A stretch of 64,000 bases of DNA from Candidatus Eremiobacteria bacterium. GTDB lineage: Bacteria; Vulcanimicrobiota; Vulcanimicrobiia; Vulcanimicrobiales; Vulcanimicrobiaceae. The stretch is taken from the NCBI GenBank assembly GCA_963737065.1, contig CAVTRC010000001.1, forward strand, positions 2,433,064-2,497,063, read 5' to 3'. Below, piece by piece: positions 4,975 to 51,906 of this stretch (position 1 is the stretch's first letter; each line of letters starts with the position of its first letter). Both the position numbers and the translations under genes were made by a program. Below the pieces are notes generated by a model. The model did no database searches and was not told the origin of the DNA. It saw nothing but the letters and a program-made list of their open reading frames with translations.

Positions 4975-6573
4975 GTGTTTACCAAACTCGCGCGCATCGG
5001 CGTAGTCCTCGCGGCGATCGTTTTGGCGGGCACTTCATTTGCGCTGGCGGAAACAACGGCAACACCAGCGTCGACGAAGGTTGCGCAGGCATCCCCTGAG
5101 CCCAGCTCCTCGCCGAATCCGTTCAGCTATCGCGGCTACGTTCGTGCGTTTGACTTTACGCGCCAAAACGCATATGGCGGTCACTCAGCGGTGAACCAGC
5201 AATCGTTCAACGCGGCGATCAGCCTCCACGGTGATTATCAATTCCTCGGCAGCGGCTTCGATATCGGTGCTTCGTACCTTTACGCGAACCCGCTGAGCAA
5301 CTGCGTATCGGCGGTTTCGCACCTCTCGCCGCCGTGCGGCGCGAACAAGGCTCCGGACTTGAACCCGGACGACACGCTTCCGGGCTACGAACTCAATACG
5401 CTCTATGAAGCGTACGCGCAATTCAAAGCGACGAATTTCACGATTAAGGCCGGCCAAATGGTGCCGCCCGCCGATCTCGTGTGGACGCCGGCCGGTGATT
5501 CGCGCCTCAAACCGTCCGCATATCGCGGCGGATACGCGACGTTCGCTGTGAACAGCGAGTTCTCGCTCGAGGTCGGTGACTGGTACCAATGGGAAGCGCG
5601 CAATCTTTCCGACTTCAATAACTACACGCTGCTTACCGACAATCCGGCGTTCCCATATCCGGGTGCGGTCGGTCTTTCGGGGCTCTATTTCGATCCGGCG
5701 AGAGCGGGACTTTCGAATGGCGGCGTGTATTTCGGCCGCATCGGTTATACCGGCCCGAAGAGCGCTCCGCTGACCGCGGGTGTTTCGTTTTACGGTTTCA
5801 ACCAAATCGCGAATGCGGTATGGGTCGATGCCCGGTATGCGTTGCCAGTCGCTGCCAAGTTGAAACCGTACCTTGCGTTCCAGTTCGGAAATGAAACGAA
5901 TCCCAGTAGCGGTTTTCTCGGGAAGATCGCTTCAACGGTCGTCGGTTTGCAAGGCGGCGTCAACGTCGTTCCAAACGTGCAGCTCGTCGTCGCCGGGGAC
6001 TACCTTCCGACGAAGACCGACACGCTCTCCGCTGCACAAATGGCATCGGGCGGTGTTATCTGCAATGCCACGCACACCGTGGCGCTCGCGCCCGGCGCGA
6101 AACCGAATCACGTGAATTTCCCGTATTTCCTTCCGACCGGCGGTACGGGCAACTGCGCGCCGAACGCGGACGGTTCCACGAACATCTACTACGGTGGATG
6201 GGCGTCGCCATACACCGACTCGTTTGCCGCCGACGCGTTCTTCACGACGGAAATGACGCAGGGCATGGTCGATCGTCGCAGTCCCGGGACGTCGGCGAAA
6301 GCGCAGCTCACGTACACGTCGAGCGATAAGCGTCTCGTCGCATTCGTCAACCACGGCTGGTACGATTACAACAACGGCGCATACGACAACGGGACGCAAG
6401 AAACGGACTTCGACGCAACGTATTTCTTCAATCACGTTCCGAAGTCGGGCCCGTACAAGGGCTTCTCGTTCCGCTACCGTTACGGTGAGCGCGACTCGTC
6501 GCCGACCTTCAAGGGCGGTTCGCCGGTTGGACTGTTCAAGTACAACCGATTCCAGGCGGAGTACGACTTCTAG
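4975..6573 (+). CDS. Putative outer-membrane beta-barrel porin
   Basis: Signal peptide, aromatic/Gly-rich alternating strands, C-terminal RFQAEYDF beta-signal; AAGGAG SD. Confidence 0.7.
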   Translation: MFTKLARIGVVLAAIVLAGTSFALAETTATPASTKVAQASPEPSSSPNPFSYRGYVRAFDFTRQNAYGGHSAVNQQSFNAAISLHGDYQFLGSGFDIGASYLYANPLSNCVSAVSHLSPPCGANKAPDLNPDDTLPGYELNTLYEAYAQFKATNFTIKAGQMVPPADLVWTPAGDSRLKPSAYRGGYATFAVNSEFSLEVGDWYQWEARNLSDFNNYTLLTDNPAFPYPGAVGLSGLYFDPARAGLSNGGVYFGRIGYTGPKSAPLTAGVSFYGFNQIANAVWVDARYALPVAAKLKPYLAFQFGNETNPSSGFLGKIASTVVGLQGGVNVVPNVQLVVAGDYLPTKTDTLSAAQMASGGVICNATHTVALAPGAKPNHVNFPYFLPTGGTGNCAPNADGSTNIYYGGWASPYTDSFAADAFFTTEMTQGMVDRRSPGTSAKAQLTYTSSDKRLVAFVNHGWYDYNNGAYDNGTQETDFDATYFFNHVPKSGPYKGFSFRYRYGERDSSPTFKGGSPVGLFKYNRFQAEYDF

Positions 6574-35074: not shown

Positions 35075-35348
35075 CCGCATCTCTAGTAAAGAATCCGGAC
35101 ACGGCGAGAACCGTTAGCAACCCAATTAAAACGGCGATCGGCGACGCGATCGCCGTAGCGATCGCAACTTCGCGCTGCTTGTCACGCAAGATAGAACGAT
35201 CCGCGCGTTCCGTCGCCGCAGGGGCCGACGTGACGATCGGAGGCATTGCCGAAAGCGTTTTGCCAAGCCATGCGCCACTGACGAAACACGCGATCACGAA
35301 CAGGGCAGCGATGAGCCAGAGTAGCGCCGGTAATCGAACGCCGTTCAC
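34977..35348 (-). CDS. Hypothetical two-TM membrane protein
   Basis: GTG start overlapping upstream stop with GAGGAG SD; two hydrophobic segments; 3' end overlaps the OYE gene. Confidence 0.55.
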   Translation of the reverse strand: MNGVRLPALLWLIAALFVIACFVSGAWLGKTLSAMPPIVTSAPAATERADRSILRDKQREVAIATAIASPIAVLIGLLTVLAVSGFFTRDAASGGFVRADIGSEQTPARRAHPPHPTSSSDRG

Positions 35349-35530
35349 TCCTCGCCGACTTTCGCGAGCAGCGCGTCGATTACGCACGTCCAGCGACCAT
35401 CGTCGTGCGAGCGCGAACGTCGTAATGTGGTCACCGTGCCTTTGCGATAGTTCTCGAGCGCGACGACGTGTTGACGGCGTGTGCCAAGCGCCGCAAAATC
35501 CGCGGCGCGAAGCCATTGCTTCGAAACCAT
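35345..35530 (-). CDS. Hypothetical 61-aa protein (possible gene remnant)
   Basis: AGGAG SD 6 nt before ATG; SD pairs with upstream leader codons. Confidence 0.5.
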   Translation of the reverse strand: MVSKQWLRAADFAALGTRRQHVVALENYRKGTVTTLRRSRSHDDGRWTCVIDALLAKVGEE

Positions 35531-35537
35531 ATGGGAC

Positions 35538-35584
35538 TCCTACGCGTAAGAGGTGTTGGTTTGTTTCGCCTAAGAAGCGTAGGA
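35538..35584 (-). promoter_or_regulatory. Anti-SD/SD hairpin coupling the RAPP leader to the downstream gene
   Basis: mRNA UCCUACGC (35584-35577) is complementary to GCGUAGGA (35545-35538). Confidence 0.65.
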
Positions 35585-36211
35585 AGGCGGCGCGCGTCCG
35601 CCCGCGGTGCAGAGCTCGGGTGCGACTTGTTTGCGCGGAACGATCCGCAAACGCGGTACGATGGCCGTCGCGATGTCGTCGCGTGTAAGCAGCGCGCGAA
35701 TGGTTTTCACGACGCGCAACGTCGCCCATGCTAGTTCGTGCATCACCGCAGCTGCGGCGAAGAACGTAACGATACACGTCACCAGGTGAACTCCGAGCGC
35801 GACCGCCACCGGCGCGCCCAGCCAGATCATTCCGCCGAGTGCGTGTCCTGCGACGATGGTTTGTTCGCACGTCTCCATTGCATAGAGGATGAAGAGTTGC
35901 GCGGCGAACGTCGCGGGCAACAACAGCGATGATCGTGAACGCAGCGCGCTGTCCCAACGACGCAAACGGTCTTTCATCATGTCGCCGTCGCCGTCGAAAT
36001 GCGCGCGAATCCGTAAGGCGACGTGGATTGCAACCGCGATGAGACCCACGCTGAGCGCAGGCAGTACGTCGAGATTGCTGTGATCGGTGTAGTGACCGCG
36101 CCCGAACACGCCGGCATTCGAGGCGGCTTCAAGCAACGGGTCTGCGACGGCGGCCGCGATCACGGCGACAGCGAGCGAAAACCACAACCGAACGGAGCAA
36201 ACGAAGGACAC
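35570..36211 (-). CDS. Multi-pass membrane protein ending in RAPP (putative ribosome-arrest leader)
   Basis: About 4 hydrophobic segments, GVFGRGHYTDH, C-terminal GGRAPPSYAS. Confidence 0.75.
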   Translation of the reverse strand: MSFVCSVRLWFSLAVAVIAAAVADPLLEAASNAGVFGRGHYTDHSNLDVLPALSVGLIAVAIHVALRIRAHFDGDGDMMKDRLRRWDSALRSRSSLLLPATFAAQLFILYAMETCEQTIVAGHALGGMIWLGAPVAVALGVHLVTCIVTFFAAAAVMHELAWATLRVVKTIRALLTRDDIATAIVPRLRIVPRKQVAPELCTAGGRAPPSYAS

Positions 36212-48269: not shown

Positions 48270-50654
48270 CTAGAACGGTTGGGTGAAGCGTAACAGGAAC
48301 GTGCGACCGGTCGAAATTTGCGTCGTATTGAAGCCGTTCGCGATCTTGATGACGTACTGCGTGTTGAAGAGATTTTCGATATCCAAGTTTACTCCGATGG
48401 AGCGTTTCGTCGCGTCTTTTCCGAGCGCGAGATTAAGCGTCGTGTGCGACGGCAAACGGCCGTTGCCGTTTTCGAACTCAACCGGATACCCGGTTCCGTA
48501 ATCGGCTTCGAGCGTCGCAAACCACGTGCGGTCGCGTCCGATGCGATGGGTGTACGAGGCCGTTCCGGCGACCGTTTGATCGTGATCTTCCGGCTGCAGC
48601 AGCGCGGGCGACGTGATCGGTAAACCGCTCGTCGTAAGATCGCCGGTGCCGAAAAGGAACGTCGATCCGGACACGCCGCCCGCATACGAACCGGAAACCG
48701 TCGTCGTGAGGAACCACGAGTCGCCGTTGCTCGTCTGATTCTGAAGGCGCAACTCGACGCCCGTATCGTAACCGATCGCGTTGTTGAAGACCGCAAAGAG
48801 CGGTGTATTCAACAGTTGCGTGGTGTCGAGAACGTTCGTCGCCGACCGGCGGAAGGCGTTGATGTACCCGCGAAAGTTGCCGCCGAACGTGTGCGCGAGT
48901 CCGAGTTCGAAATACGCGTCTCGCTCCGGCTGCAACGTATAGGCGGGCTCGGTCGTGCAGCCGTTGAGAAGCACGCAATCTTCGCGAACGTCTTCCAATT
49001 GCGGAGCCGCGTACATGCGTCCATAGTATGCATGAGCGACGTTTCTGCCGCTGTCATCGGAGAGGTTGACGCCGATGCGTGGTTCCAGCATCCAGCCGCC
49101 GACGTACCCCGTCGAATGATCGAACCGGAGGCCGTAATTGAACGCGAGATTTTGATACGGCTGCCATTTGTCTTCCGCGTAGGCACCGAAGAGGGTACCG
49201 GCCTGGTTCTGCGCGGTGGAGACGGCGTAGAAGCCGGGAGCGGGCGGCGCCGGAGGCGGCGTTGACGGCGCCGGGTTGCAATCCGAGGTGTAGCAAGCAA
49301 ACGTCTGCGTCGCCGCAAAGTTCTCGCGGCTCACATCGACACCGGCCTTCCATGCATGGTGTTCGCTTGCGTGGAATTCGGAGATCCGCGCGCCGATGTA
49401 GTTCGCGCGGCGGTCTTGCTGCAATCCGATCTGATTGGCGAACTGCGGCGCGTCCGGCGTGCTCGAATCGCCGAACGCCGGATTCGGCGCAAGCGCCAGT
49501 ACGTCGTTGGTCAAGTCGCCTGCGTAGGCGATGCGCGTCGAGCGGACCCAAGGAATGAATTGGAAAACGCTGTTGCCGTCTTTCGATGTCGCCGTGTAAT
49601 TGACGTTGATGAACGAGTCGTACTCACGCTGAACGTCATCGGTGCCGGGAACGCTAAAGATCGGGTCGTTCGGGTCGTTGGAATCCGTGTTGATCGGAAT
49701 CTGGAATTGGTTGAGCTGATTGGAGAGATCGACGGCGACGGTCTGACGAGGCCCCATCTGCGCGACGTAGCGTACGAACTCGTCACCGAGCGAGTTGTTG
49801 TCGTGAATCGGCGTGTACGTCGGCGCGTCGAGCCCGCGAGCACTGCGTTGCGTATTGAGGCTCACGTAGAGCTCGCTCGCGCTGAAGCGTTCGAGTTCGT
49901 CGAGCGAGACCATCGACGTCGCGTAATTTCCCGCGCCCGCAGTCACTGACCCGTAACTGCCCGGCGGCTGATCGGACAAGCGAGTCGATACGAGATTGAC
50001 CACCGCGCCCATGCGCGTGCCGCCGTCTTCGGCGGGAAACGCACCGGTGTACACCTCCATCGAATCGAGCACCTTCGGGTCGATGATCTGCCCGAAGTTT
50101 GAACTGGTCGCGAGCGGCAGCGGTGCACCGTCGATCTCATACGTCAAGCCGTGGAAACCGTGCGCGACGGGCTCGTCGTACGAGAAGCGGACGATGCCCG
50201 GCATCGTTTCGATGAGGCGGTTGAGGTTGTCAAAGTGCGGCGAGGTGTTGATCTGCGACTTCGAGAGCGTATTCACGGAGACCGGACTACCGCCGGCACC
50301 GGCGTGTGCGGTGACCGTCGTATTCGCGATCTCCCTCAATTGATCGAGCGAGACATTGGCCGTAACGACGGCATCGCTTGTAACGGTCAGGTCGATCGTC
50401 CGGTCGGTAACGCCGGCTGCATGAACGGTCAGACGATACTGCCCGAACGGCACCTGCGAAAACCTGAAGTCGCCCGACGCGTCGGTCGCCGTCGTAAAGC
50501 GCGACCCTTCGCCGGTAAGCGTCGCGGTTGCACCAACCTGCGGTTTACCGCGCAGCGTCACCGTGCCGCGAACGAATCCGGTCGTTGCCGCCCATCCGGG
50601 CGAAGTACATATAAGGAAACACGCGGCAAGAGCGGCCGCGGACATTCGGGACAT
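48270..50654 (-). CDS. TonB-dependent receptor with N-terminal carboxypeptidase-regulatory-like domain
   Basis: Signal peptide, TTGFVRGTV N-domain, plug VYTGAFPAEDG...GAVVNLVS, ENLFN, C-terminal F. Confidence 0.85.
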   Translation of the reverse strand: MSRMSAAALAACFLICTSPGWAATTGFVRGTVTLRGKPQVGATATLTGEGSRFTTATDASGDFRFSQVPFGQYRLTVHAAGVTDRTIDLTVTSDAVVTANVSLDQLREIANTTVTAHAGAGGSPVSVNTLSKSQINTSPHFDNLNRLIETMPGIVRFSYDEPVAHGFHGLTYEIDGAPLPLATSSNFGQIIDPKVLDSMEVYTGAFPAEDGGTRMGAVVNLVSTRLSDQPPGSYGSVTAGAGNYATSMVSLDELERFSASELYVSLNTQRSARGLDAPTYTPIHDNNSLGDEFVRYVAQMGPRQTVAVDLSNQLNQFQIPINTDSNDPNDPIFSVPGTDDVQREYDSFINVNYTATSKDGNSVFQFIPWVRSTRIAYAGDLTNDVLALAPNPAFGDSSTPDAPQFANQIGLQQDRRANYIGARISEFHASEHHAWKAGVDVSRENFAATQTFACYTSDCNPAPSTPPPAPPAPGFYAVSTAQNQAGTLFGAYAEDKWQPYQNLAFNYGLRFDHSTGYVGGWMLEPRIGVNLSDDSGRNVAHAYYGRMYAAPQLEDVREDCVLLNGCTTEPAYTLQPERDAYFELGLAHTFGGNFRGYINAFRRSATNVLDTTQLLNTPLFAVFNNAIGYDTGVELRLQNQTSNGDSWFLTTTVSGSYAGGVSGSTFLFGTGDLTTSGLPITSPALLQPEDHDQTVAGTASYTHRIGRDRTWFATLEADYGTGYPVEFENGNGRLPSHTTLNLALGKDATKRSIGVNLDIENLFNTQYVIKIANGFNTTQISTGRTFLLRFTQPF

Positions 50655-50659
50655 GAAGA

Positions 50660-50714
50660 CTCCTCGGAACGTAACGTGCGTGTTGTTAAGCGGAAGTCAA
50701 CACGAGCCGAGGAG
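50660..50714 (-). promoter_or_regulatory. Anti-SD/SD hairpin coupling the RPPP leader to the TonB-dependent receptor
   Basis: mRNA CUCCUCGG (50714-50707) pairs with CCGAGGAG (50667-50660); inner stem CGUGUUG (50704-50698) / CAACACG (50685-50679). Confidence 0.7.
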
Positions 50715-51237
50715 GCGGACGCGTCACGATGCGCCGCGCGAGATGCGGCGTGACGATCGCCGGCGATGCATATCGCCGGACCACAAAGACCGTTCGAGGC
50801 GCGGTCGCGAGGCGGGAGATGGCGATCGCGCAGCACGCGAGCGCGCGTGCGGTGAGAACCGCGAGTCGCCGCAGCAAGATCGCTGCGGTCAGCATCACGA
50901 GCGAGATGATGAGGAATGAAGCCGGTCCGTGCGCGGGTTCGAGCGACTCGATGAAGGCGAACCAGACGCCGCCCGCCGCCGCTACGGCGCGAGCGCGCGG
51001 AATCCACGAACACAGCCGCGCGGCAAGGACGCTGCCTTGCGCGCAGTTTCCGCAACTGCCGAACGCCGCGACGATTGCCGCGACGAGAGCGCCGCCCGCG
51101 CCTGCGAAGGCGAAGATTGCGAGGGACTCATGATAGGCACCCGCCTCCATGTGGCCCTCGCCGAACCCGGCTGCGTGGGCAACCAGGGAGGCAAGCAGCC
51201 CTAGAATCAGGGCACCCGGCAACTGCCGGAGAGACAT
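50686..51237 (-). CDS. Multi-pass membrane protein with His motif, CxxC and C-terminal RPPP (putative ribosome-arrest leader)
   Basis: HAAGFGEGH...YHE, CGNC, about 4 hydrophobic segments, TRPPPRLVLTSA. Confidence 0.75.
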   Translation of the reverse strand: MSLRQLPGALILGLLASLVAHAAGFGEGHMEAGAYHESLAIFAFAGAGGALVAAIVAAFGSCGNCAQGSVLAARLCSWIPRARAVAAAGGVWFAFIESLEPAHGPASFLIISLVMLTAAILLRRLAVLTARALACCAIAISRLATAPRTVFVVRRYASPAIVTPHLARRIVTRPPPRLVLTSA

Positions 51238-51354
51238 CAGGGTTAGCTTTCTTGCGGGTCGCAGGTTTGGCCTTGAGCCCGCGTCGTATCCTTGGACCCC
51301 CAAGCCCTAGCCGAAGCCGCCGGACGTGGGAACGGAACCAGTGTAAGAGAGATC

Positions 51355-51906
51355 ATGAACAGCCGTCTACCCGTCGAAAACGCCGATACCGTGAGTCTGG
51401 TTTGCGCACTTCTCGTGCGTTTTCCGGAGTTGGCTTCGATTCGCTCGATGCCCGCGGATCGCACTGTGCGTCTGACCTTCGCGCTGAAGTCGCGACTGGA
51501 CAAACGCGCGCAATCGGCGCTGCGTGATGCGCTCGAAGATCATATCGCGGCGTACCTCACGATCGCCAAGGATGAAGCTGATACGGTGCGGATCGACTGC
51601 GAGAGCGACCGTTCCACGACGTTCGTCCACGTCACGCGCGACACGGCGAGCTTTTCTAAGGAAGAGCTCGAGATGCTCGTCGCGTTCTTCGGTTCCGAAT
51701 TCGCTGAGGCGCTCGTGCGCAATCCGCTTCCCGCCGACCATCTCGATGCCGACCCCGTCGCTCAAGACGAAGCGGCCCTCTACGCAATCGAAGCGCTGCG
51801 GGATCCGACGCAATCGAAGAGTTTGGTTGGCTTCCGCGAAGAAGCGCGAGTGCTCGTGTACTTTTTGAAGTCTCAACGGAAAGCGAAGGCTTCGTCGCGC
51901 CGATAA
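51355..51906 (+). CDS. Hypothetical protein
   Basis: Coherent ORF heading the ymdB-spoVS operon (VSLVCALLVRFPEL...LVGFREEARVLVY). Confidence 0.75.
   Translation: MNSRLPVENADTVSLVCALLVRFPELASIRSMPADRTVRLTFALKSRLDKRAQSALRDALEDHIAAYLTIAKDEADTVRIDCESDRSTTFVHVTRDTASFSKEELEMLVAFFGSEFAEALVRNPLPADHLDADPVAQDEAALYAIEALRDPTQSKSLVGFREEARVLVYFLKSQRKAKASSRR

Follow-up and report, generated by a model that had tools for sequence, protein, structure and literature searches.

Metal-sensing arrest-peptide leaders that control uptake or detoxification have been recognised only since 2022 (CruR in 2022, CutF in 2023); the full-length CutF protein is reportedly undetectable or rapidly degraded in cells. Arrest of CruR at its Arg-Ala-Pro-Pro (RAPP) sequence has been shown in vitro (PMC12992588), and CutF functions in cis only (PMC9973294). 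Here we analyse a 64,000-nucleotide stretch of DNA from Candidatus Eremiobacteria bacterium (the window; contig CAVTRC010000001.1, positions 2,433,064 to 2,497,063, assembly GCA_963737065.1), in which the gene for a polytopic membrane protein (the leader) precedes a gene for a TonB-dependent-receptor-like protein (the receptor). We consider it rather probable that the leader is an arrest peptide of the RxPP type, belonging to a protein family not described before, and that a ribosome stalled near its end unmasks the Shine-Dalgarno (SD) sequence of the receptor gene; switches of this kind are known from genes under copper control. To our knowledge, there is almost no experimental genetics in the source phylum.

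The core of RAPP-like arrest sequences has the form RxPP, in which x is Ala or Gly while Ser, Asp and Pro are partly permissive; screens of random libraries yielded RxPP with G, A, S or P at this position (PMC12992588). Replacement of Ala by Pro in ApdP, which creates RPPP, gave an arrest nearly as good as that of the wild type in B. subtilis (2.4 versus 1.9 units), and a partial arrest in E. coli; the same replacement in ApdA gave an intermediate arrest, and the Arg was irreplaceable (PMC12992588). RPPP also causes the strongest stall of the XPPP sequences when elongation factor P (EF-P) is missing, and E. coli proteins have fewer RPPP sequences than expected (PMC4176338). Its treatment as a stalling-type motif, with which the present analysis started, is documented by both sources (PMC12992588; PMC4176338). 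A GTDB-wide survey of 2025 found upstream open reading frames (uORFs) with RAPP or RGPP to be enriched ahead of TonB-dependent receptors and copper genes (PMC12992588). The survey extracted only RAPP, RGPP, AAPP and AGPP, and a family ending in RPPP would therefore escape it (PMC12992588). The string RPPP is absent from the main text of that paper. Two words typical of the family described below, LGLLAS and IESLEP, had no match in the part of its RAPP uORF table that was examined, which does not establish their absence from the table as a whole (PMC12992588).

The leader gene and its protein family

The leader gene occupies 50686..51237 on the minus strand (ATG at 51237; stop codon TAA, 50688-50686, included) and encodes a polytopic membrane protein of 183 residues from an unnamed family. 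The protein has the C-terminal end TRPPPRLVLTSA, its translation closing in ...ARRIVTRPPPRLVLTSA, and a gap of 31 nt separates the stop codon from the ATG of the receptor gene (50654, minus strand). The original prediction, made from the letters and a list of open reading frames (ORFs), had noted an ORF at 51237-50686 with the motifs HAAGFGEGH..YHE and CGNC and an RPPP-type end 31 nt ahead of the receptor; the ORF and its motifs were found again on re-reading the sequence, and the coordinates of the end agree. The GC content by codon position is 0.70/0.58/0.77, and the value at the third position (GC3, 0.77) resembles that of adjacent genes. Because of this GC3, the 36 relatives and the 213 cluster representatives reported next, the leader ORF is taken as a real and conserved gene.

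A word-indexed search yielded 36 relatives of the leader at E <= 0.01, with lengths of 178–219 residues and identities of 36–100%; the sole organism name among them is Candidatus Eremiobacteraeota. A family profile was built from 34 of the 36 and searched against 1.84 billion cluster representatives, which gave 213 matches at E <= 0.001, 163 at E <= 1e-10 and 80 at E <= 1e-30. The named records of the family come from Eremiobacteraeota/Vulcanimicrobiota, and the relatives found by profile and word search are named only as 'hypothetical protein'. No Pfam match was obtained for any of the 34 members, nor a Pfam or NCBIfam match for the window leader at E <= 0.1. The sequence profile found no relative among solved structures at E <= 10, and a Foldseek comparison of the leader with the PDB gave no match at E <= 0.001 among the 26 listed (best template-modelling score 0.35). 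The neighbours of the leader in the ESM Atlas are unnamed clusters only, most commonly from Vulcanimicrobiota and Planctomycetota. DUF6412, the nearest named Atlas cluster, was set aside, as its score of 0.81 is one that often arises by chance. A search of a library of open-access papers found no earlier description of the family.

Motif counts cover 185 retrieved family proteins, in which the motif was sought in the last 24 residues; column counts were made on 150 near-full-length sequences of 160–235 residues, picked regardless of the motif. The C-terminal motif is present in 169 of the 185 proteins, as RPPP in 157 and as RAPP in 12, and its conservation among homologues, set beforehand as a check, is thereby borne out. 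In the 16 proteins that lack it, and in no others, the best profile match ends by position 170 of 184; these 16 are therefore fragments or broken gene calls. Counted by column, R173 is found in 146 of the 150 sequences, P174 in 136 (plus 10 with Ala), P175 in 147 and P176 in 148. In these alignments no feature of the family is conserved more strongly than the C-terminal R[P/A]PP.

In the window protein the codons of R173-P174-P175-P176 are CGT CCG CCT CCT (50721-50710, minus strand). The motif extends upstream to ARRIVTRPPP (50710..50739, minus strand), for which the family consensus is RRxF[AS]RPPP and which is the proposed arrest site; among 139 sequences, R is found at position -4 in 111, F at -2 in 86, and A, S or T at -1 in 116. 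The motif is followed by 0–17 residues, mostly 3–8 and seven in the window protein, which vary in length and sequence. The distance between Glu97 and Arg173 is 76–78 residues in 116 of 138 sequences, despite the variable sequence between them.

The preference for Pro over Ala at the second position of the motif (157 of the 169 motif-bearing members) also fits a plain polyproline pause, the length of which would be set by EF-P, so that the switch would report the translational or growth state of the cell and not a ligand; the rank of RPPP as the strongest EF-P-dependent XPPP stall in E. coli agrees with this (PMC4176338). The 12 members with RAPP, however, point to a mechanism of the RAPP type, one that EF-P does not relieve (PMC12992588), and a plain pause would leave unexplained why the spacing to the membrane domain and the periplasmic His/Glu residues (see below) are conserved. 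We give the polyproline pause a small chance of being the explanation, and favour a regulated arrest peptide.

The CxxC motif, which had been proposed as part of the sensor, is of a different standing. CGNC (Cys62-Cys65; 51043..51054, minus strand) lies in the predicted cytoplasmic loop 2 and is lineage-specific, not family-wide. CxxC occurs at this site in 5 of the 185 proteins, all close relatives, and anywhere in 11; Ala predominates in column 62, and 22 of 150 sequences have Cys in column 65. The conservation of His and CxxC, which was to be checked, holds for the His part, H21 and H29 being near-invariant, and fails for CxxC, which with 5 of 185 cannot be the sensor motif of the family. 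Membership of DUF2946 (PF11162) was considered and rejected: none of the 34 members matches the model at E <= 10, and a conserved CxxC/CxxxC was likewise not found. The suggestion that the leader is distinct from DUF2946 was therefore right.

Predicted topology and candidate ligand residues

An AlphaFold2 model of the leader was made with an alignment of 139 sequences (predicted local distance difference test score 90.9; predicted template-modelling score 0.78). It contains helices at residues 3-25, 33-64, 68-76, 82-98 and 108-144, and residues 145-183 form a coil of lower confidence. The leader is confidently modelled as four transmembrane helices with an unstructured, Arg-rich tail. The mean number of Lys and Arg residues in the family is 1.53 for the N-terminus, 0.09 for loop 1, 2.71 for loop 2, 0.24 for loop 3 and 7.69 for the tail; loop 3 has on average 1.24 Asp and Glu residues. 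By the positive-inside rule this distribution places both termini in the cytoplasm, and hence H21, H29, H36, E97, E100 and H103 at the periplasmic face.

The His/Glu residues predicted for the periplasmic face fall into two groups. The His cluster (His21-His36, AHAAGFGEGHMEAGAYH; 51130..51177, minus strand) spans the predicted periplasmic end of the first transmembrane helix, loop 1 and the start of the second, with column counts of 144 for H21, 139 for G26, 146 for H29, 144 for G33 and 119 for H36 (out of 150). The ExxExxH motif (Glu97-His103, ESLEPAH; 50929..50949, minus strand) lies at the predicted periplasmic end of the third helix, with counts of 148 for E97, 147 for E100 and 138 for H103. 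Other near-invariant columns are G13 (140), G68 (141) and P80 (148). On the basis of the alignment, His21, His29, (His36), Glu97, Glu100 and His103 are the conserved sensor candidates. Other periplasmic sensors bind Fe(III) through ExxE motifs, and by this likeness Fe(III) is a candidate ligand.

Helix 1 closes with a conserved A-H-A (residues 20-22; 51171-51179, minus strand), which resembles an AxA signal-peptidase site. Cleavage there would make helix 1 a signal peptide that stands outside the bundle; in the model, by contrast, helix 1 is packed confidently, and His21 is invariant.

A polytopic protein with an arrest-like motif at its C-terminus calls to mind several monitoring substrates (PMC10987492, PMC13183943), and the leader might, like MifM or CliM, report the capacity for membrane-protein insertion by Sec or YidC, with no ligand involved. 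Against this, the downstream gene encodes an outer-membrane receptor and no Sec/YidC component, and the invariant His/Glu residues predicted at the outer face suggest ligand binding. Insertion monitoring appears very improbable, and the leader is treated below as a putative ligand sensor.

Predicted pairing of the proposed arrest codons with the receptor SD sequence

The original prediction had described two helices at the junction of the genes, and both were recovered on re-reading the sequence. The anti-SD CUCCUCGG (50707..50714, minus strand) lies within the codons of Pro175-Pro176-Arg177 (CCT CCT CGG) and is an exact 8-nt complement of the receptor SD region CCGAGGAG (50660..50667, minus strand), which is the 3' arm of the outer helix and holds GAGGAG, 5 nt before the AUG. 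The inner hairpin (50679..50704, minus strand) has a 7-bp stem, CGUGUUG (50704-50698) with CAACACG (50685-50679), and encloses the leader stop codon in its loop. RNAfold of 50640-50730 (minus strand), the check that had been suggested, gave both helices in the minimum free energy (MFE) and centroid structures, at −26.1 kcal/mol.

The codons of the anti-SD are unusual for the window. CCT is the rarest Pro codon, with 5.1% of 802 in 40 long ORFs, and CGG makes up 15.3% of the Arg codons; not one of the 40 Pro-Pro pairs in these ORFs is encoded by CCT-CCT. Synonymous codons for the last 20 residues, kept fixed, were redrawn 3000 times from the codon usage of the window and compared with a 13-nt SD region. 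A perfect SD complement of at least 8 nt was found in 1 of the 3000 resamples and one of at least 7 nt in 9. The codon choice of the anti-SD exceeds chance.

The anti-SD is placed 1-8 nt into the proposed P/A-site codons. An anti-SD:SD helix of 8–9 bp is present in the MFE structures of the window and two related loci (L001 and L002, described below), and in all three the outer helix is lost when the first 27 nt are barred from pairing, as they would be under a ribosome whose P site holds codon 175.

A terminator-like GC hairpin, CGCGGC..GCCGCG at 50640-50622 followed by a U-rich tail (the whole feature spans 50612-50640, minus strand), covers receptor codons 5-14. It sits in a block of ~64 nt, from the SD to codon 16, which is almost invariant in the window, L001 and L002 and in which the rare codons CTT and ATA are used. 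Its place in the nearly invariant first codons of the receptor can be read in favour of transcriptional control, by which the stalled ribosome would block Rho loading or a terminator, instead of or besides unmasking the SD; CruR controls a TonB-dependent transporter in this way (PMC9426467). Terminator-like sites, however, are at the level of shuffled sequences (1 found versus 1.2 expected), the gap of 31 nt (55 nt in L002) contrasts with 162 nt in CruR (PMC9426467), and the anti-SD pairing would have no role. We attach little credence to transcriptional control, and consider the unmasking of the SD the better candidate for the step at which the receptor is regulated.

Related loci and the receptor

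The receptor gene (48270..50654, minus strand) encodes a TonB-dependent-receptor-like outer-membrane protein of 794 residues with an N-terminal CarboxypepD_reg domain. The Pfam matches to CarboxypepD_reg (PF13620, 46.5 bits) and to the Plug domain (PF07715, 29.7 bits; cut-off 23.9) are both above the cut-offs. The barrel domain PF00593 gave no match at E <= 0.1 in the window receptor, the only barrel match being OMP_b-brl_3, below its cut-off; weak matches were to siderophore receptors and to CirA (the latter over residues 480-634). There are 711 homologues at E <= 1e-30. Most of the best 120 of these 711 carry PF00593, and the named ones among the same 120 are TonB-dependent receptors or Fe-transport receptors from Eremiobacteraeota, Baltobacteraceae and others. 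Homologues at 81–87% identity have a precomputed PF00593 match and the source name TonB-dependent receptor.

The window was compared with three related loci (L001, L002 and L003) from one genome scan. The leaders of L001 and L002 are 81% and 76% identical to that of the window, and the gene order is the same in both: a divergent 204-residue gene, the leader and the receptor. The receptor of L002 is 77% identical to the window receptor over its full length. The gap between leader and receptor is 55 nt in L002, where the inner hairpin falls within a 25-nt insertion. CCTCCTCGG is retained in both loci, and the SD block TTCCGAGGAGTCT does not vary between these loci and the window, so that the two arms of the outer helix are identical throughout. 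The codons beside the anti-SD vary among the three (168, 170, 171, 173 as CGT/CGA/CGC, and 174 as CCG/CCA/CCA). Since 59 of the 126 same-residue leader codons are identical in all three loci, the identity of the three anti-SD codons is in itself a weak argument. The inner hairpins differ (CGUGUUG/CAACACG, UUGCU/AGCAA and UUUGCGC/GCGCAAA), each standing around its own stop codon. The arrangement of anti-SD, SD and receptor, for which homologues were to be examined, is retained in both L001 and L002.

In L003 both flanking genes are kept, with 83% and 81% identity, and the receptor is absent. What is left of the leader (6001-6093) consists of its first 21 codons, nine out-of-frame codons and a stop, directly before a heptose epimerase gene. 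Leader and receptor have thus been gained or lost together. For more distant members, 6 of 36 leader matches (the one of the window included) have a longest contig of the same size as that of one of the 120 best of the 711 receptor matches; the sizes are 2,497,063 (that of the window itself), 3,421,103, 365,956, 7,230, 7,281 and 86,263 nt. In the distant pairs of 7,281 and 86,263 nt, the leaders are 48% and 44% and the receptors 55% and 54% identical to those of the window. Shared contig sizes indicate co-location at best, not adjacency.

The joint loss or gain of the two genes would also suit a reading in which the leader is a stable inner-membrane partner of the receptor, such as a metal- or haem-binding four-helix protein that acts on the imported substrate. 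On this view RPPP would serve the cytoplasmic tail as a motif for structure or docking, or would be an incidental EF-P-dependent pause, and the hairpin would be mere translational coupling, since any ribosome passing the last codons opens it; by the geometry of the junction, every translating ribosome has to melt the anti-SD arm. The strong conservation of the 145-residue domain, its confident fold and invariant His/Glu residues of the sort typical of a cofactor site speak for such a partner too. It fits less well with the tail, in which only RRxF[AS]RPPP is strongly constrained and the residues after it vary, with the constant spacing of this motif to the membrane domain and its position near the stop codon, which is the signature of an arrest peptide (PMC12992588), and with a rare-codon anti-SD exactly on the PP codons. 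A partner role is unlikely to be the explanation, though it is compatible with an arrest leader and the two are not mutually exclusive.

Some further observations concern the upstream side. The 23 nt ahead of the leader ATG and the first ~17 codons (51180-51260, minus strand) have unusually conserved nucleotides in the window, L001 and L002; of the first 12 leader codons, 9 are identical in all of them, versus 59 of 126 overall. No strong SD for the leader itself is evident upstream of its ATG, no sigma-70-like promoter was seen in 50400-51500, and no riboswitch or other known RNA family was detected at E <= 1 between 50000 and 52000. The divergent neighbour (51292-51906, plus strand) encodes 204 residues, with a start that is probably internal (MNSRL), and has no Pfam or NCBIfam match. 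It is kept beside the leader site in L002 and L003, with 83% identity in L003.

Proposed mechanism and points against it

The following mechanism would account for these findings. The leader would be inserted co-translationally as a four-helix inner-membrane protein, and RRxF[AS]-R-P-P-P would act as an arrest sequence of the RAPP/polyproline type. In the resting mRNA the codons of Pro175-Pro176-Arg177 would be paired with the receptor SD region, the stop-codon hairpin helping to keep the two arms together, and the receptor would be translated poorly. Arrest would occur with the Pro175 codon in the P site and the Pro176 codon in the A site, an assignment taken by analogy from toeprints on RAPP peptides (PMC12992588). 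The stalled ribosome would mask the anti-SD together with the 5' arm of the inner hairpin, and the SD, more than 30 nt beyond the stall, would be free for a new 30S subunit. With the anti-SD held inside the stalled ribosome and the SD free, the receptor would be made.

The state of the nascent chain at this point suggests how the arrest may end. With Pro175 in the P site, the last ~30–35 residues would be in the exit tunnel; as the end of helix 4 (residue 144) is 31 residues away from the P site, the whole bundle would be out of the tunnel. At this stage the periplasmic His/Glu cluster could fold or could bind a ligand, for which a metal ion is the likeliest candidate, and the pull on the nascent chain would end the arrest. 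The ribosome would terminate seven codons further on, the helix would re-form, and uptake would be switched off.

There is direct support for the gene and its family, the invariance of the motif, its fixed spacing from ExxE, the predicted topology and the rare-codon anti-SD pairing in the window, L001 and L002. The stall itself is inferred, and so are a ligand that releases it and a stalled state that is ON, the latter two from the topology, the fixed spacing, the logic of uptake and the analogy with CruR (PMC9426467). For CutF, metal has been proposed to prolong the pause, so the direction of control cannot be assumed (PMC9973294). The stalling switch of the original prediction is therefore upheld in part: motif conservation, spacing, the rare-codon anti-SD and the literature on RPPP argue for it, while CxxC as the sensor motif has to be given up.

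Several points weigh against this mechanism. The energy of the hairpin by itself is unremarkable (z = −1.62, with 17 of 200 shuffles as stable), and 249 of the 3000 synonymous resamples had an MFE as low as the native one, which is not significant; as against 1 of 3000 for the complementarity, the pairing measure alone is significant. Residue 177 (Arg, CGG in the window) varies across the family, so the 8-nt pairing cannot persist as such in distant members, and the evidence for SD complementarity and for receptor synteny comes from the window and its close relatives L001 and L002, together with the coincidences of contig size. Polyproline stalls are normally relieved by EF-P, and RPPP may therefore pause the ribosome only briefly. 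A folded and conserved domain of 145 residues exceeds what a leader needs, and may for that reason have a function of its own. Finally, both the ligand and the meeting of the His and Glu residues in one site are suppositions.

A second candidate locus

A second locus in the window with similar features was noted at 35345-36211 (minus strand). It starts with a multi-pass, His-rich ORF of 213 residues without a Pfam match (P0306; 36211..35570), the C-terminus of which is GGRAPPSYAS and the end of which reads ..TAGGRAPPSYAS. The codons right after RAPP give UUCCUACGC. Next comes a 61-residue ORF (35530..35345, minus strand), and its SD, GCGUAGGAG, pairs with UUCCUACGC over 9 bp, one of them G-U. 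This helix is found in the MFE structure (−27.7 kcal/mol, z = −1.08). Alignment of P0306 with the leader family by hhalign is weak (probability 4.2%, pairwise E 0.0099), which makes it a lead and not evidence of homology; the same order of motifs is found in the alignment, namely FGRGH/FGEGH, DGDMMKDRL/QGSVLAARL and METCE/IESLE. In the Atlas, P0306 has only unnamed clusters as neighbours, from Vulcanimicrobiota and Actinomycetota, with a score of 0.97.

It is a tentative and rather doubtful idea that the window holds two diverged members of an undescribed superfamily of polytopic sensor leaders, in which a bundle still bound to the ribosome would detect a periplasmic metal through FGxGH and ExxE(..H) on its outer side, and in which the codons of R[P/A]PP, or those directly after them, would serve as the anti-SD of the next gene. 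If true, one and the same set of nucleotides would serve as stall site and as RNA switch, which makes the design a minimal one. For the leader and receptor described above, confirmation of the switch would mean that mining restricted to particular motifs under-counts such leaders, and that stall codons can themselves act as an anti-SD; it would also offer a tractable case for the release of a ribosome by folding of, or ligand binding to, a polytopic domain, and a handle on the substrate of an abundant receptor family of Eremiobacteraeota.

Comparison with known systems

Among the described systems, the locus can be set beside the RAPP-like arrest-peptide class (Sakiyama/Fujiwara/Chiba) by several features of its sequence: an RxPP core, its position near the C-terminus, transmembrane segments and a downstream gene on the same strand. 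With ApdA, ApdP, the RQH family and the Streptomyces lividans set, the leader family shares the invariant Arg, the PP at the proposed P and A sites and the position near the C-terminus (PMC12992588). The RAPP/RGPP peptides are likewise small secreted or membrane proteins with a same-strand downstream gene, and some are four-helix membrane proteins with conserved His residues ahead of metal-related genes, for example SLIV_18480 (PMC12992588; PMC10987492). This Streptomyces lividans protein, with four transmembrane helices and rich in His, is likened to the leader by its description only. The TonB-related uORFs of the RAPP/RGPP survey, in contrast, nearly all have signal peptides, where the leader has a transmembrane bundle (PMC12992588).

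CruR of Bordetella pertussis (DUF2946; cruR-bfrG(crtA)-bp2921) resembles the leader in having an N-terminal export or membrane signal and in being encoded by the ORF upstream of a TonB-dependent transporter (PMC9426467). It also has a metal-ligand motif at a conserved distance from an RxPP near the stop codon, CxxC-RAPP in the case of CruR (PMC9426467); the same combination is found in the leader family with a variant of the arrest motif and a different ligand motif. The leader family is unrelated to DUF2946 by sequence (0 of 34 at E <= 10). CruR consists of a signal peptide and a soluble domain with CxxC and RAPP, whereas the leader family is predicted to have four transmembrane helices, with His/Glu and mostly RPPP. 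The gap is 162 nt in CruR, which works through Rho-dependent termination, and 31 nt in the window, with an SD-sequestering helix (PMC9426467).

CutF of Rhodobacter capsulatus (DUF2946-like; cutFOG) is also a metal-sensing exported leader with a proline-rich C-terminus (PMC9973294). An anti-SD stem-loop shields the SD of the next gene in the cut operon as well, and translation of the leader opens it (PMC9973294). CutF differs in being a Sec-exported, soluble protein with CxxxC, in controlling a detoxifying oxidase, and in that metal is proposed to prolong the pause and keep the switch ON (PMC9973294). By comparison, the leader of the window is polytopic, carries the anti-SD in its proposed arrest codons and has the gene of an uptake receptor as its presumed target.

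In SecM-secA and MifM-yidC2, the stalled ribosome disrupts an SD-sequestering helix (PMC9973294). The folds of the window, L001 and L002 correspond to this, in that a ribosome at the stall site would open the helix paired with the SD, as in switches of the SecM, MifM and CutF type. SecM and MifM monitor the export machinery that they regulate, whereas the presumed target of the leader is a receptor gene, and its putative sensing domain resembles a ligand site. To the known leaders the locus adds another type of sensor (a four-helix domain folded in the membrane, with His/Glu, versus a secreted protein with CxxC), an RPPP core and an especially compact RNA switch. Judged from its sequences, the leader family appears new and non-homologous to those described, being polytopic and His/Glu-based, with RPPP and with the anti-SD inside the arrest codons; the principle of the switch was already established.

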